DNA from: Candidatus Saccharimonadota bacterium
GTDB taxonomy: Archaea; Micrarchaeota; Micrarchaeia; Micrarchaeales; Micrarchaeaceae
Assembly (NCBI GenBank): GCA_963698035.1
Contig: OY969114.1
Coordinates: forward strand, 90,001 to 122,000
Length of the DNA: 32,000 nucleotides
Direction of reading: 5' to 3'
Below, one piece after another: positions 1,802 to 6,941 of this stretch. Position 1 is the first letter of the stretch; each line of letters begins with the position of its first letter. A program made the position numbers and the translations under genes. The notes under the pieces are model-generated. The model did not search any database and was not told the origin of the DNA. It worked only from the letters and a program-made list of their open reading frames with translations.

Positions 1802-3463
1802 ATTAACGGTGATTTTTTCAAGTATTTAGTTACGGCGGCCCTGCCGTATATAAACAATGTTCCCCACCTAGGACACCTTATAAGCACACTCTTGCCGGGT
1901 GATGTCTACAGTAGGTTTCTTAAACTGAAAGGGGAAGAATGCGTATATGTCTGCGGTACTGACGAGTACGGAACGACTATAGAAATAGAGGCACTAAAAA
2001 TGAATATAACACCACAGAAGCTTACAGATGCCAATTTTCTTGTAACAAAAAGCGGCTTTGGCAGGCTGGATTGCAAGCCTGACATATTTTCAAGAACATC
2101 TGATCCAGCCCATACAAGACTTGTCCAGAAGTTCTATGAGCAGGTAAAGGGCAACGGCTATATCTACACTAAGAATATAGAACAGCTGTACTGCGACAAG
2201 GACCAAAGATTCTTGGCGGACAGGTTTGTCGAAGGTACTTGCCCCAATTGCGACTACGAAAGGGCAAAGGGAGATCAATGCGAAAATTGCGGCAAAATTC
2301 TGACACCCACCGATTTGAAGAACCCGCATTGTGTGATTTGCGGCGAAACACCGCACCTGAAAAAGAGTGAGCATGTCTTCTTTGCGCTAAGCAAACTTCA
2401 GGACCAGCTCCAGACTTTCGTACAAAAACAAGTACATTGGTTTCCCAACGCGAGAAATTTTGCACTTAGCTGGTTGAACGAGGGGCTTGTTGATATAGAC
2501 ATACAAAGGGATATAAAATGGGGAGTACCAATTCCAGATTCTGATGGCAAGGTGTTTTACTCGTGGTTTGACGCCCCGCTGGGCTACATCACATTCACCA
2601 ATCAGCTCGGGAAAGGCAAATGGTGGCACGAGGATGATGTTAAGCTTGTACATTTTATCGGTAAGGATAATATAGCGTTCCATACTCTGTTCTTCCCCGG
2701 TATGCTAATGGCAGCCGGGGGGTATATTCTTCCTTGGCAGGTGGCATCATATGAGTTCCTAAACTGGGTGGCCGGTGAGAAGTTCTCGAAGTCAAGGGGC
2801 ATAGGACTGACAGTTCCTCAGGCTGTAGACCTATATCCAGCGGATTACTGGAGGTACTATTTGCTCACAATTCTTACAGAGAAGAGGGATACGAACTTTT
2901 CATGGGATGAGTTTGACACAAAGATTAACGGCGATTTGAACGGCGTACTCGGAAATTTCGTGCACAGGACTCTCACATTTACCGAGAGGTTTTTCCAGGG
3001 CAAAGCGCCCGAGCCAAAGGAGTACAGCGAAAGCGACAAGAAGGCATTGGAGGCCATAGACGACGCATTTGAAAAGGTGACCGTCCATTTTGAAAACATA
3101 GAGCTCAAATCCGGATTGGGCGAGATTATCAACCTGGCCAGGATCGGAAACCAGTATATGCAGAGCGAGGAGCCTTGGAAGAACGAAGACACCAGAGCGA
3201 ACACGATCTACGTGGTGCTGAACATAGTACACGCCCTGTCAATACTATTAGAGCCTGTCATCCCATCCAGCGCTGCGAAGATCAGGAAACAACTGAACGA
3301 GACTGAAAAGCCGGACTGGAAGGATATAACAAAAAGGATTGCGCCAAGGCATGAAATCGGGAAAGTAGAACCAATTTTCAAGAAGATAGAGCCTAAGGAA
3401 ATTTCCGCGCTGAAAGAAAAATATGGAAGCAACTTCAGTCAGGCAAATAATCGCACGCCCTGA
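1802..3463 (+). CDS. metG: Methionyl-tRNA synthetase (class I aaRS)
   Basis: In-frame codons upstream of the ORF-track start encode FFKYLVTAALPYINNVPHLGH, which contains the HIGH motif. Other motifs are the zinc knuckles CPNCDY...CENCG and CVICG and a KFSKS (KMSKS-type) motif. The TTG start at 1892 would delete the HIGH motif. The frame is open back to 1796 with no ATG, GTG or TTG. Position 1802 is an in-frame ATT, and GTG at 1809 is one frame off across a T6 run (1813-1818). Confidence 0.9.
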   Translation: MNGDFFKYLVTAALPYINNVPHLGHLISTLLPGDVYSRFLKLKGEECVYVCGTDEYGTTIEIEALKMNITPQKLTDANFLVTKSGFGRLDCKPDIFSRTSDPAHTRLVQKFYEQVKGNGYIYTKNIEQLYCDKDQRFLADRFVEGTCPNCDYERAKGDQCENCGKILTPTDLKNPHCVICGETPHLKKSEHVFFALSKLQDQLQTFVQKQVHWFPNARNFALSWLNEGLVDIDIQRDIKWGVPIPDSDGKVFYSWFDAPLGYITFTNQLGKGKWWHEDDVKLVHFIGKDNIAFHTLFFPGMLMAAGGYILPWQVASYEFLNWVAGEKFSKSRGIGLTVPQAVDLYPADYWRYYLLTILTEKRDTNFSWDEFDTKINGDLNGVLGNFVHRTLTFTERFFQGKAPEPKEYSESDKKALEAIDDAFEKVTVHFENIELKSGLGEIINLARIGNQYMQSEEPWKNEDTRANTIYVVLNIVHALSILLEPVIPSSAAKIRKQLNETEKPDWKDITKRIAPRHEIGKVEPIFKKIEPKEISALKEKYGSNFSQANNRTP

Positions 3464-3467
3464 TATA

Positions 3468-3497
3468 CACACTCTATATATGAGCCCTACCCCGGTG
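3468..3497. repeat. 30-nt direct repeat, copy 1 (partner at 4246-4275), starting 5 nt after the MetRS stop
   Basis: cacactctatatatgagccctaccccggtg versus cacactctatatgtgagccttaccctagtg gives 26/30 identical positions in the same orientation. Both copies are preceded by gcc(c)tga. Each contains a TATA-like core. Confidence 0.6.
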
Positions 3498-3552: not shown

Positions 3553-4050
3553 ATGTTACTAATTGGTGTTTGCTTGGAAGAAAGGGATAAAATATGGCAC
3601 GGCGCCTTCGTCTGCGTATTCAACAAGAGCTTCTCAAAGATACTTCTGCTGAGCCGCAACTGGAAAAAGAAGAAACGGGAAGGAAAGGTATGGGAAAGCA
3701 AGGCGATGTGGGGCAACATCGGAGGGTCAATGGAAGCGGGGGAAACGCCTCGGCAGGCATGCGTAAGGGAGGCGGGGGAGGAAATCGGCGTGAGATTAAA
3801 CCCCAAGGACCTGGTGCAGGTCTATGTTAAGAAGAGGCCGGTCTCCGAACCAAAGCCGTATGTTGTATGCTTCCATGCCACTACTATTGATGAAGGCACA
3901 AAGATTAGTCTAAACGACGAATCGTACAAATATAGATGGTTTAGCATTGAAAAGCTTCCTAATGGAATGCTGGATAAGAAGGAAGACATACTCAAATGGA
4001 GGAATCTGGCAATGTCCGGCCTTGGTGCGGCAAAAGACACAGCATCATAG
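3553..4050 (+). CDS. NUDIX hydrolase
   Basis: The 165-aa ORF contains the Nudix box GGSMEAGETPRQACVREAGEEIGV, which fits GX5EX7REUXEEXGU. Confidence 0.85.
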   Translation: MLLIGVCLEERDKIWHGAFVCVFNKSFSKILLLSRNWKKKKREGKVWESKAMWGNIGGSMEAGETPRQACVREAGEEIGVRLNPKDLVQVYVKKRPVSEPKPYVVCFHATTIDEGTKISLNDESYKYRWFSIEKLPNGMLDKKEDILKWRNLAMSGLGAAKDTAS

Positions 4051-4110: not shown

Positions 4111-4245
4111 CTTCAATACCTATATCCCTCATGCAAGGTGTTCCGGCCGTAATTTGAACGCTTTGTAGCAAAATAGCCCATTTTTAAAATTCCCCGCTGT
4201 CAAAACTATGCTTCAACCTCAACCGGCCTGGCGAGCCTGAATGTC

Positions 4246-4275
4246 CACACTCTATATGTGAGCCTTACCCTAGTG
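4246..4275. repeat. 30-nt direct repeat, copy 2 (partner at 3468-3497)
   Basis: See copy 1. This copy lies in the 295-nt spacer between the convergent NUDIX and ATPase genes. Confidence 0.6.
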
Positions 4276-4345: not shown

Positions 4346-6499
4346 CTAAGATTGTTTGAGTATATCCCTGACGGGTAACTTCAAGCATTTGTACTTATTA
4401 TCTGTTAATCTTTCTATTTCTTCTTTTGTTTTGCTTCCGTTTGTGACAAATATCAGTTCTGTGTTCTGACCGCTTGCCTTTTCTATGCACCTCTCTATCT
4501 CGCTCCTTATCGCATTGGTCTGGATCTCGTATGCGGTTACGTTGTAGTAGTCCCATAACCCCTTTATCTTTGAATCCGTCTTGAGTTCCCCGACATCGAA
4601 GCTCTCCCTTTCCTTCAGCACGAACGGAAAATTACCATTATCCTGAATCATTTCAATGGTATTTTTCATGAGCCCAGAGTGTTCTTCACTTCCTTTGTTC
4701 ACTCCTTGCCTTTGTATTATCCTGTATGAATCCAATAACTCCTGAGCCTTCTTGGTCAGCTTGCCATCCATGAAATATCCCGAATCTGTTGCCCTTCGCA
4801 GCAATGATGGCTTGCTTGGAGTGCCATAAATTGTTGTCTTGCTTGTTATCCAACCCCTATTCTTCAGCATTTTGTGCGCTTCGGTAAGGTTGTTTGTCCT
4901 GCTGAACGCCACGAGGAACCTGTACACGCTTACACCGGGGATGTCCAGCTGCCTTATCACCGCGTGCATCTCCCTGTCAGGCTGCCTGCTCGGCCCGGAG
5001 TCCCTCGCATTGCCTATGTCCAGCCTCTTTATGCTCTCCCTGAGCCTGTTCTTCTCCTCCCTGCTTATCATGTCGATCTCTATGTACGCGGGATGCGGCT
5101 GTCCGTTCTGTATCGCGTTCTGGTCGAAGAGCATTGCGCCCCCGACGGGCATCCTGTGCAGTATCGCCTTCTCTATCTCGGTGAAGACCAGCATCTTGTG
5201 TATGCTCTCGAGCGCCCTTGGCTCGTGGTACGAGAGCACGAACTTGACGGAGGTGTTTGCCACTATGGGCGCGGGCAGGTCCTCCAGCAACTGCGTTGAA
5301 ATCAGCAGCCCGAACCCGTATTTCCGGCCCTCCCTCACCACCTTCGTTATATTGGTCTCCTTGTTGTAGTAGTTGACTATCGCCTGATAGGCGTCGTCCA
5401 GCGCTATGTAGAGCTTTATCCTGTCCTGGACCCTGAACTCCTCTATTATCCTCTGCATTATCGTGTGGGTGACCAGCTTCTTCTCTATGTCCGTAAGGCC
5501 CTCCATGTCGATTATGTTGCACGTCTTGTCGTAGTTGTCCCAGAACTCCTGCGCCTCGTATCCGAAGATCTCGAAAGCCTGCCTCAGCTTGTTGGTTGTG
5601 TACCTCAGCTGCAGCTTCATCTCCTTGTAGCGCTCCCTGTCGGCCTCTTCCAATAGGCGATCATGAAGGGTCCTTATGGTCGGTTCCTTTCCTTCGTTGT
5701 ACATTTCTGCTAATGTTTCCCTGACCTTCTGGGCCTGGAGGTCCGTCAATGCAAGGGATACCTGAAGGAGCTCTGACGCGATTCCGCACCTCCTCTCTGT
5801 GCTCATTCCCCTCAACGGGAATGGGTTGACCTTCAGGTTCGCGGGCACGCGCCAGATATTGACATCCATAGCGTTGTGCTTGTACGAGCCCGACCAGTCC
5901 ATTATCAGGAATGGTATGCCGAACCTGGTATAGCTCCTTGTGAGGAATGTCAATGTAAGGTTGGTCTTGCCCGAGCCCGACTCCCCTATTATCATCACAT
6001 GCGGATTGGGTTCGCTCTTTGTCTGCAGGTCGTATATGCCCTTCGAGCCGGAAATAGAGAGCTTTGAGGATTTTGTCTGCACCCCGGTGGCCATCGTCCT
6101 GATTGTTGTTTCCGTCCCTGTGGGATGCGGATACTCGTACCCTATCGCGATGCCGTTGTGGCGGTGCATCTTTACGCGGTCGCCGAGCACCGCAAGGTAG
6201 TAGGAGATTATCGCTGTTATGGGGATGTATATCCAGATTGGTATGATGGAATAAAGGACGATGTAGAGCAGCTGCGTAAGCAGGAAGAACATGAGGAAGT
6301 CGCCCAGCGCGGCCACCCTCTTGTGCCCCCTCTTGACGTACTTGAAGAAGTCGTTTATAGCGTGGCTCTCGCTCTTGTGCTGGTACTTGAAGCCGAAGGC
6401 AAGGAAGACCAGAACGAGGATGTATATTGCGTACAGCATTACGGCAGAGACCGCGCCGAATGTGGTTGCAAGAAGGACCAACGAACCCCCCCCATACAC
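4346..6499 (-). CDS. Membrane-anchored HerA/FtsK-superfamily P-loop ATPase with a C-terminal wHTH-like and PD-(D/E)xK-like extension
   Basis: - Motifs: Walker A GESGSGKT (nt 5963-5986), Walker B-like LYIALDDA, and a GRKYGFGLLISTQ box typical of HerA/DUF87-type ATPases.
- N-terminus: 3-4 hydrophobic helices.
- Start: GTG 6499 (VYGGGSLVLL...) is preferred, because the ORF-track extension to 6589 runs through TATA-like boxes (minus-strand tttatatatttta).
- Alternative start: the ATGs at 6510 and 6495 are one frame off across a G8 run (plus C-run 6486-6493). Confidence 0.75.
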   Translation of the reverse strand: MYGGGSLVLLATTFGAVSAVMLYAIYILVLVFLAFGFKYQHKSESHAINDFFKYVKRGHKRVAALGDFLMFFLLTQLLYIVLYSIIPIWIYIPITAIISYYLAVLGDRVKMHRHNGIAIGYEYPHPTGTETTIRTMATGVQTKSSKLSISGSKGIYDLQTKSEPNPHVMIIGESGSGKTNLTLTFLTRSYTRFGIPFLIMDWSGSYKHNAMDVNIWRVPANLKVNPFPLRGMSTERRCGIASELLQVSLALTDLQAQKVRETLAEMYNEGKEPTIRTLHDRLLEEADRERYKEMKLQLRYTTNKLRQAFEIFGYEAQEFWDNYDKTCNIIDMEGLTDIEKKLVTHTIMQRIIEEFRVQDRIKLYIALDDAYQAIVNYYNKETNITKVVREGRKYGFGLLISTQLLEDLPAPIVANTSVKFVLSYHEPRALESIHKMLVFTEIEKAILHRMPVGGAMLFDQNAIQNGQPHPAYIEIDMISREEKNRLRESIKRLDIGNARDSGPSRQPDREMHAVIRQLDIPGVSVYRFLVAFSRTNNLTEAHKMLKNRGWITSKTTIYGTPSKPSLLRRATDSGYFMDGKLTKKAQELLDSYRIIQRQGVNKGSEEHSGLMKNTIEMIQDNGNFPFVLKERESFDVGELKTDSKIKGLWDYYNVTAYEIQTNAIRSEIERCIEKASGQNTELIFVTNGSKTKEEIERLTDNKYKCLKLPVRDILKQS

Positions 6500-6636
6500 T
6501 TGATATTCATATTTGGATAATAAAATATATAAATGTTTACTTTGGTATAAATTAGGGGAAGAATGCCGGACAAACCGACCAGGGAGCAAAGAAGTAAGCG
6601 GAGGTTATGTTTATGCCATAGGCAGCAAGATAGAGT

Positions 6637-6705: not shown

Positions 6706-6779
6706 GGCAACAGCAAGGTATAATAATGGAAAAGTAGAACTATGGGATGTTGGAGTCTATTCTTAAAAGGCGGAATAAA

Positions 6780-6941
6780 ATGGAGAGAGTACTTCTAACT
6801 GGAGCCACTGGATTTATAGGAAAGGAGCTTGCAGCCAAGCTGGCAGAGAAGAATTTGGAGGTGCACTCCCTAGAGCTGCACTCTCTAGAGCGCTATGTGC
6901 TTGCAGTAGAGGTTTGCGGACTGGAGGCTGGGAGGATATAG
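6780..6941 (+). pseudogene. N-terminal remnant (~40 codons) of an NAD-dependent epimerase/dehydratase (SDR) gene
   Basis: MERVLLTGATGFIGKELAAKLAEKNLEVHSLE(LHSLE)RYV aligns with the N-terminus of the intact paralog at 21423..22385 (MERVLITGSTGFIGKALLNKLGGGKYEIHTLERYV). Similarity stops at ~6899, where the convergent gene 6893..7927 ends. There is a 15-nt tandem duplication (6862-6876 and 6877-6891, one mismatch). Confidence 0.7.

Follow-up and report, generated by a model that had tools for sequence, protein, structure and literature searches.

Among described systems, those closest to the gene considered here are the archaeal DNA import ATPases CedB, CedD and TedB, in which an N-terminal membrane anchor precedes a HerA/VirB4-like core. 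CedB and CedD are anchored by transmembrane (TM) helices and required for import, and the genes of all three ATPases stand alone, not always beside those of their partners (bioRxiv 10.1101/2024.09.27.615246; PMC9905601). The gene in question lies on the minus strand, at positions 4346 to 6499 of a 32,000-nucleotide stretch of contig OY969114.1 (positions 90,001 to 122,000, hereafter the window), from a genome placed by GTDB in the Micrarchaeota. It encodes a membrane anchor, an ATPase core of the FtsK-HerA superfamily and a C-terminal tail that combines a winged-helix-like module with a domain resembling PD-(D/E)xK nucleases. Tentatively, and as the foremost of several readings, the protein is taken for a self-contained membrane-anchored DNA translocase-nuclease that belongs to the flexible genes of the Micrarchaeota, those of integrated mobile elements and defence islands, and whose likeliest role would be the transfer of its integrated element.

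A number of differences from the known systems can be listed. The window family scores far below the equivalog cut-offs of CedB and CedD and has no CedA or pilin partners at its loci, and the Ced and Ted proteins carry no winged helix-turn-helix (wHTH) plus nuclease-like tail. Moreover, the Ced genes are core genes of the Sulfolobales and are induced by ultraviolet light, whereas the window family is patchily distributed in variable Micrarchaeota islands. A second group of comparators comprises HerA-NurA, SIR2-HerA/Nezha, DUF4297-HerA, TdpAB and DndFGH, which are among the top matches and likewise combine a HerA-type hexameric motor with a nuclease in a defence-island context. In these soluble complexes, however, the nuclease is a separate protein (RNase-H-like NurA, SIR2 or Cap4-like), whereas the nuclease-like domain of the window family is fused C-terminally, after the wHTH-like module, to a motor anchored in the membrane. 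The order predicted for the window protein, with a membrane anchor, a ring ATPase and a C-terminal DNA-recognising winged helix, is that of FtsK/SpoIIIE and of Streptomyces TraB. TraB acts on its own as a DNA-transfer ATPase, with clt repeats as its recognition sites; integrative elements carry it, and it is enough by itself for conjugative transfer of double-stranded DNA (PMC12857230). Unlike the window protein, FtsK and TraB have no nuclease domain, and the window core falls in the HerA/VirB4 branch rather than the FtsK branch. The MOBC relaxases, such as TraX of pAD1 and MobC of CloDF13, are relatives of the PD-(D/E)xK enzymes; they use a catalytic domain of restriction-endonuclease type for transfer and have a small ribbon-helix-helix (RHH) partner encoded upstream, RHH being the fold of most relaxosome accessory proteins (PMC12857230). 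They are nevertheless separate soluble proteins, not fused to an ATPase, and the likeness is one of logic only. Finally, restriction enzymes of FokI, Mrr and BglII/NotI type share with the tail, as it is modelled, a winged-helix recognition part followed by an alpha-beta-beta-beta-alpha-beta domain, and the D...ExQ signature is that of BglII and NotI; by contrast, they are not fused to a motor or a membrane anchor, and their matches to the tail are sub-threshold and without sequence similarity.

Each part of the protein has a known counterpart, be it motor with nuclease, membrane-anchored motor or motor with wHTH. Neither the all-in-one polypeptide nor the tail family seems to have been described: searches of the literature turned up no account of the family, and databases call its members only 'hypothetical', 'DUF87 domain-containing' or 'ATP-binding'. 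DNA exchange, acquisition and exclusion are poorly understood in DPANN archaea, whose lifestyle relies on host-cell contact and scavenged nucleotides, and here a phylum-restricted, unannotated single gene combines a membrane anchor with a DNA motor, a predicted DNA-binding module and a probable nuclease. Should its role be DNA transfer, no simpler conjugation-like device would be known from archaea, and TraB-type transfer would have its archaeal counterpart. Should it be defence, a HerA-nuclease system fused in cis and anchored in the membrane would be the first of its kind, and the gene would be an addition to archaeal immunity. Either way, the private wHTH-nuclease-like tail represents a domain family that is new. 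The features of the gene are listed below, with residue numbers of the 717-amino-acid (aa) protein, which equal those of the first-pass annotation, made on a 747-aa frame, minus 30.

4346..6499, minus strand: coding sequence, complete from a GTG start to the stop, 717 aa (open reading frame list, public gene call P0001, full-length homologues)
6526..6533, minus strand: archaeal TATA-box-like element TTTATATA (sequence; function suggested by archaeal promoter spacing)
6185..6487, minus strand: membrane anchor, with TM1 at aa 5-38, TM2 at 65-82, TM3 at 88-105 and an amphipathic helix at 44-56 (Kyte-Doolittle, AlphaFold2, homologue alignment)
6026..6151, minus strand: small beta-rich N-domain, aa 117-158, before the P-loop core (four AlphaFold2 strands)
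5015..6022, minus strand: HerA/VirB4/CedB-like ATPase core, aa 160-495 (Pfam, NCBIfam, PADLOC, Foldseek, PDB profile search)
5963-5986, minus strand: Walker A, core motif
5393-5413, minus strand: Walker B, core motif
5309-5338, minus strand: VREGRKYGFG, core motif
5291-5299, minus strand: STQ, core motif
4940..5014, minus strand: linker, aa 496-520, weakly conserved and of low confidence (predicted local distance difference test, pLDDT, <50 at aa 498-508; length varies among homologues)
4754..4939, minus strand: predicted winged-helix-like DNA-binding module, aa 521-582, helices then beta-hairpin (AlphaFold2 tail residues 15-76)
4379..4693, minus strand: PD-(D/E)xK-like domain, aa 603-707 (AlphaFold2 topology, invariant residues; no significant match)
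4679-4681, minus strand: codon of H607, invariant residue
4595-4597, minus strand: codon of D635, invariant residue
4526-4528, minus strand: codon of E658, invariant residue
4520-4522, minus strand: codon of Q660, invariant residue

The reading frame and all motifs quoted in the first-pass annotation are present in the sequence, and its assignment of the core to the HerA/FtsK superfamily is supported. Pfam places the DUF87/HerA central domain on the core (1.5e-12, 48.6 bits against a cut-off of 23.2), together with the TraG P-loop, while FtsK_SpoIIIE scores just 0.016 on the ATPase. The top NCBIfam matches are CedB (1.4e-20) and CedD (3.2e-20), followed by VirB4 and HerA, and the best match of a PDB sequence profile search is HerA of S. 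solfataricus. Foldseek with the full-length AlphaFold2 model (28 homologues in the input, mean pLDDT 84.4) returns matches between 1e-13 and 1e-9, namely to HerA (5.9e-13), VirB4 (8.8e-12, with a template modelling (TM) score of up to 0.71 on the target), DndH-C and TrwB, and it also finds the defence HerAs of SIR2-HerA, DUF4297-HerA and TdpAB. PADLOC reports mad8 (2.9e-18, 64.5 bits), DndH (2.4e-13, 46.6 bits) and several HerA models, all on the ATPase core only, and in a plasmid collection the identity to TraC is about 25% and likewise restricted to the core. The characteristic motifs are GESGSGKT at 172-179, LYIALDD at 363-369 and VREGRKYGFG...STQ at 388-403, and GESGSGKT, LYIALDD, REGRKYG and STQ are all invariant or almost so across homologues. 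Membership of the superfamily calls for Walker A and B, a conserved Arg (finger) and a polar Gln that closes the sensor strand, on a RecA-like core. The protein is a P-loop ATPase that belongs to the FtsK-HerA superfamily, and it is not an orthologue of CedB/CedD, HerA or VirB4. CedB (73.5 bits against 700) and CedD (72.3 against 600; NF041017, NF053655) miss their equivalog cut-offs, the core alone being aligned. HerA_Thermprot gives 26.7 bits against a cut-off of 800, with no NurA, Mre11 or Rad50 gene near the annotated loci, and VirB4 (TIGR00929) gives 29.8 bits against 643, with no type IV secretion system (T4SS) neighbours. No MADS or Dnd partner genes are recognised among the annotated neighbours, and the gene is not assigned to any of the known anti-phage systems of PADLOC.

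The membrane anchor had also been read from the sequence, as three or four hydrophobic helices, and here hydropathy and structure prediction agree. The Kyte-Doolittle profile has two hydrophobic blocks, at aa 4-40 and 62-106, which AlphaFold2 splits into three membrane helices (aa 5-38, 65-82 and 88-105). A conserved amphipathic helix (aa 44-56) sits in the loop 37-62, and this loop contains 7 Lys/Arg. By the positive-inside rule, these charges would put the loop, and likewise all that follows residue 106, on the cytoplasmic side and leave the N-terminus outside, so that the predicted topology is N-out with a cytoplasmic ATPase. The region of the N-domain that follows the anchor is marked by three invariant residues in the homologue alignment, G116, G120 and H125.

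Modelled alone, the 200 residues of the tail (AlphaFold2, 25 homologues) reach a pLDDT of 92.6 and a predicted TM score (pTM) of 0.90, and the model reproduces the order of secondary-structure elements that had been predicted from the sequence. In tail numbering, helices 17-29, 32-42 and 60-66 followed by a hairpin at 70-75 form the winged-helix-like module, in which P521, S553, Y558 and G559 are invariant. Two short helices separate this bundle from the nuclease-like domain, which runs alpha1 (99-114), beta1 (118-120), beta2 (130-133), beta3 (149-153), alpha2 (159-171), beta4 (175-180), alpha3 (183-192) and beta5 (198-201). The motifs noted at first pass fall at GSEEH 603-607, FD 634-635 and YEIQ 657-660. 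In the model, D635 (tail 129) starts beta2 and E658-x-Q660 lies within beta3, with an Asp-to-Glu spacing of 23 residues, which is in the usual range. Six tail residues are invariant across homologues (H607, D635, W649, Y657, E658 and Q660), and the Asp, the Glu and the Gln are unchanged even across 25-30% identity. The acidic residue of helix 1 is variable; H607 is not. As modelled, the layout is the PD-(D/E)xK arrangement of restriction endonucleases, in the Gln variant of BglII/NotI type.

Distant relatives detected with the tail profile point in the same direction. In several of them Pro-Asp itself stands where the family has its Asp, with a hydrophobic strand after it (VPDLIG, SPDLIA and GPDLIA), and these keep YE(I/A/V)QT, and one very distant relative has RPDIL ... 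VEVET, an ExE form. Replacement of the motif Lys by Gln (BglII, NotI) or by Glu (BamHI) is known from active enzymes, as is a lack of the Pro ahead of the Asp (PMC3025569). In a Foldseek search of the PDB with the tail model, all matches were sub-threshold; FokI headed the list (E 0.044, TM score 0.33, probability 0.94 over 148 aligned columns), and Can2, the Lassa L endonuclease and BsaWI came after it. FokI itself consists of winged helices followed by a PD-(D/E)xK cleavage domain. In BFVD the sub-threshold matches include restriction endonucleases, Mrr, RecB-family, VRR-NUC and PD-(D/E)XK nucleases. For the winged-helix-like module, Foldseek gave the FokI recognition domain, NanR and MarR-type proteins, weak and not significant. 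In our judgement, the tail probably has a restriction-endonuclease-like fold with a functional metal site; the winged helix is plausible on topology alone. The first-pass annotation had proposed just such a tail. Its proposal gains from the topology, the placement of the residues and the 'PD' of distant relatives, and it falls short of a significant profile or structure match, the outcome of these searches being borderline, with sub-threshold matches that lean to restriction endonucleases.

A word-indexed protein search yielded 59 homologues. Some 45 span the whole protein (677-725 aa) with 42-81% identity, and the few homologues that have names are Micrarchaeota. Against 1.84 billion representative proteins, a HMMER profile of the tail gave 95 matches only. 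All of these are C-termini of 580-750-aa ATPases of the same kind, or fragments, so that the tail is a private module of this family. The more distant tail-bearing members, which include ARM1_0662 of the cultured Micrarchaeota strain ARM-1, have rather different P-loop cores and N-termini, and two are apparently without membrane helices. In a scan of one genome per GTDB species, relatives are almost exclusively found in Micrarchaeota. The tail-bearing form occurs in about a dozen species, some copies being split or decayed (loci L012, L014 and L019) and others cut off before the tail (L016 and L017). Judged by sequence, the number of homologues and the invariant tail residues put the feature well beyond chance. 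The gene had been called an orphan, which holds for the window, where it has no partner genes, and does not hold for the protein, whose family is well populated and Micrarchaeota-wide.

About 50 further species of the GTDB scan have tail-less paralogues only, at roughly 25% identity; these are HerA-like or T4SS-like proteins and were rejected as family members. One tail-less ATPase of Micrarchaeota (DUF87/AAA_10, 464 aa) lies in a co-directional cluster at L042 6102-13365, with about 4 predicted membrane proteins and a 754-aa Zot-like P-loop protein, and this cluster may be a T4SS-like or Ted-like apparatus. Conversely, three metagenome proteins of 203-226 aa (P0168, P0169 and P0172) consist of the wHTH and nuclease-like tail alone. 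One of them is labelled as coming from a Thermoplasmata archaeon metagenome-assembled genome, a clade that includes known Micrarchaeota hosts. They may be products of split genes or a module that stands free, or a contig may have been mis-binned.

The surroundings of the gene were compared across 18 loci, the window and 17 others. As the first-pass annotation had remarked for the window, channel and pilus genes are not adjacent: within 8-10 kb at these loci there is no pilin, VirB6/CedA-like channel, CedA1/TedC-like or other T4SS gene, the search having covered these neighbourhoods and not whole genomes. Among homologues the tail is conserved, whereas the gene neighbourhood is not, and none of the 18 loci is a T4SS locus. 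Twelve independent loci have 10-kb context, and among these tyrosine integrases (by Pfam) occur in 3, transposases in 5, toxin-antitoxin or Abi genes in 5 and TFIIB-like genes in 2. A reverse transcriptase is also found near family genes, and glycan-synthesis genes adjoin only the window copy and that of L005. By tblastn, homologues of restriction-modification, integrase or transposase genes were found at 6 of the 18 family loci (self-matches excluded) and at none of 42 control Micrarchaeota loci. The family lies in variable islands rich in restriction-modification, integrase, transposase and toxin-antitoxin genes.

The integrases stand near the gene at L006, L075 and L078, and an integrase homologue stands near the truncated copy of L016. 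At L075 (6283-18813) and L078 (4744-16698), tyrosine-integrase genes or fragments, in the case of L075 also a tRNA-like stretch, form the borders of segments of about 11-12 kb, and both segments hold a distant tail-bearing ATPase together with restriction-modification cargo. They are candidate integrated elements of Micrarchaeota. PHROGs gave nothing informative on the small open reading frames of the L075 element. The sole recurrent neighbour of the family is a small same-strand gene found directly upstream of the ATPase at 4 loci, as follows.

L006 9680-9835, L008 9782-9988, L013 90-353 and L078 9620-9796, same strand as the ATPase: small upstream gene with an invariant GYKK motif

The best PDB profile match of its product is the plasmid RHH repressor CopG, with residues 2-44 of 45 collinear at an E value of 0.6. 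No such gene was found in the window by tblastn.

The domain anatomy, the residue conservation, the phyletic restriction and the genomic context are established; that the protein forms a hexamer, that it binds and cleaves DNA, which way the DNA moves and what purpose this serves are inferred. The P-loop core, being homologous to HerA, VirB4 and CedB, would form a hexameric ring, which 6 x 3 transmembrane helices would hold to the membrane on its cytoplasmic side. The winged-helix-like module at the C-terminus would bind DNA, and the adjoining restriction-endonuclease-like domain (Asp ... Glu-x-Gln) would nick or cut it, yielding a DNA end from which the ATPase ring would thread the DNA. The logic would be that of a terminase, with recognition, nuclease and motor, or that of a relaxosome with its coupling protein. 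A single protein could then take the place of a coupling ATPase, an origin-recognition domain and a relaxase of restriction-endonuclease (MOBC-like) type, much as the FtsK-like TraB of Streptomyces plasmids stands alone, with the small CopG-like upstream protein acting as accessory factor or repressor. The window copy would be a solitary, apparently intact one whose host element has been lost.

Transfer of an integrated element explains several features together. It explains the membrane anchor and a wHTH that follows the motor, a placement known from the gamma domain of FtsK and from TraB, which binds clt. It explains the restriction-endonuclease-type domain because MOBC relaxases are PD-(D/E)xK relatives, and the CopG-like partner because relaxosome accessory proteins are mostly RHH. 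It also explains the integrase-bounded segments and the non-syntenic, decaying copies. In a more specific and more doubtful form, the ATPase and its CopG-like partner would be a minimal DPANN engine for integrated-element transfer, moving element DNA, perhaps also chromosomal DNA, between Micrarchaeota or across symbiont-host contacts, with neither pilus nor T4SS channel.

A series of observations weighs against transfer of the element. The core groups with the HerA/VirB4 clade and not with FtsK, TraB or type IV coupling proteins proper. For the tail, nothing reaches E<=1e-3 when the model is searched with Foldseek against the PDB and BFVD, and Pfam, NCBIfam and PDB profiles give chance-level matches only (a glycosyltransferase, S24e and designed proteins), both for the whole tail and for a nuclease-only alignment. 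Against restriction enzymes encoded by neighbouring genes, hhalign with the nuclease alignment stays below 1% probability, no better than negative controls; the targets, all single sequences, were ThaI, MvaI/BcnI, the HsdR N-terminus, Vsr, the MmeI N-terminus and the UvrD PDDEXK domain. Integrases are found by Pfam in only 3 of the 12 well-sampled loci, to which the homologue at L016 can be added, and the enrichment of island genes (Fisher p = 3.7e-4) is indicative only, since the 673 kb of controls were centred on conserved operons. Pfam finds no RHH match in the small upstream protein. No replication gene or repeat resembling an origin of transfer was identified, and the window copy has no integrase, attachment (att) site, tRNA gene or CopG-like gene nearby.

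Transfer and defence are two close readings. According to the second, the gene is a single-gene system against viruses or plasmids, in which a membrane-bound HerA-type motor with a cis-fused nuclease would bind entering DNA, reel it in and cut it. This is somewhat unlikely, though close to transfer in probability. In its favour, AbiEii, HicA, VapBC and MazE genes lie nearby, family genes are tightly embedded among defence genes, the 42 control loci have no homologue of the restriction-modification, integrase and transposase genes, and a patchy distribution with pseudogenes and the absence of a conserved partner gene both suit a self-contained system. The best PADLOC matches are the defence ATPases mad8 and DndH and several HerA models, and Foldseek adds SIR2-HerA, DUF4297-HerA, TdpAB and DndH-C; the PADLOC scores, however, are all limited to the generic ATPase core. 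Co-location does not discriminate either, since restriction-modification genes are also common cargo of elements, and 2-3 loci have integrase-bounded segments. Moreover, the known HerA defence systems are soluble two-gene complexes, and defence does not specifically explain the membrane anchor and the wHTH. To our knowledge, the characterised membrane-anchored members of the superfamily all move a substrate across the membrane and none acts in restriction, which also argues against defence.

Less probable still is that the tail has kept the fold without the nuclease, serving DNA binding or oligomerisation only, and that the protein is an FtsK/SpoIIIE-like membrane pump, acting for example in segregation at division or at cell-cell contacts. 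A winged helix C-terminal to the motor has its parallel in the FtsK gamma domain and in TraB (PMC12857230), and such a tail would agree with the lack of a significant nuclease match, with the missing motif lysine (Q660) and with a helix 1 in which H607, and not the acidic residue, is invariant. On the other hand, exactly the catalytic positions keep their Asp, Glu and Gln unchanged across 25-30% identity, ExQ/ExE variants are active in BglII, NotI and BamHI, and the patchy distribution and decay oppose a housekeeping role.

Cellular import of DNA in the manner of Ced or Ted, from a Thermoplasmata host or from kin, with the nuclease processing the DNA for recombination or nucleotide salvage, is improbable. 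It could draw on the best curated-family matches, which are the DNA import proteins CedB and CedD, and on the organism, a reduced symbiont with a 777-kb contig. The CedB/CedD scores are, however, about 1/10 of the equivalog cut-offs, no CedA/VirB6-like channel or CedA1/TedC-like pilin gene stands beside any of the 18 loci, Ced proteins are without the wHTH-nuclease tail, and a core nutritional function would not be expected to show a patchy distribution and pseudogenes. The first-pass annotation had seen a likeness to Ced/Ted-type exchange ATPases. This likeness survives as a match of the core; as to role, the restriction-modification, integrase and transposon islands of the relatives shift it to mobile-element or defence biology and away from Ced-type uptake. 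A viral packaging ATPase is unsupported, no relative having been found in IMG/VR viral contigs.

As to the gene itself, the frame on the minus strand extends over 4346..6589 and would encode 747 aa if a TTG start were taken. The public gene call on the 776,853-bp contig (P0001, 717 aa, 100% identity to the window product) begins instead with GTG at 6499. The TATA-box-like element at 6526-6533 on the minus strand lies 27-34 nt 5' of this GTG, within the 747-aa extension, and its position would imply a leaderless or short-leader mRNA. Since the element lies inside the extension, the N-termini of homologues fall near GTG 6499 and the public call agrees, this GTG is the likelier start, and the TTG start was rejected as unlikely.

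Around the gene, the context described at first pass holds: a NUDIX gene (3553-4050) is bracketed by repeats and a truncated gene lies beside the ATPase. The repeat is a 35-nt direct one (3463-3497 and 4241-4275, 83% identical) with two copies only in the window, the second of which lies about 70 nt beyond the ATPase stop codon. A terminator or intergenic element may have been duplicated here, or the repeat may be an insertion footprint. The truncated gene, at 6747-6941 on the plus strand, encodes a 64-aa N-terminal fragment of an NAD-dependent epimerase with a GATGFIG motif, is 53% identical to the L015 epimerase, and stops abruptly just upstream of the ATPase promoter, which indicates that the edge of the glycan island was once rearranged. 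The GC content at third codon positions of the ATPase gene (0.716) is the highest in the window and, together with the truncated epimerase neighbour, fits a past insertion or rearrangement. Scans of the window for tRNA genes and Rfam families were empty, so there is no tRNA att site, and the flanks (MetRS, the methionyl-tRNA synthetase; NUDIX; glycan genes) have no synteny with the other loci.

Two further observations concern the rest of the window. A pyridoxal-dependent decarboxylase at 161-1721 on the minus strand is divided between two overlapping reading frames, 161-1138 and 1068-1721 (310 and 217 aa in the public gene calls), which suggests a frameshift or a pseudogene. On the other side of the ATPase gene, a long co-directional block of low GC content (0.37-0.46) extends over 6893-31717 on the minus strand and is made up of glycosylation and membrane-protein genes, including those of a 776-aa polytopic membrane protein, an FkbM-type methyltransferase and epimerases.

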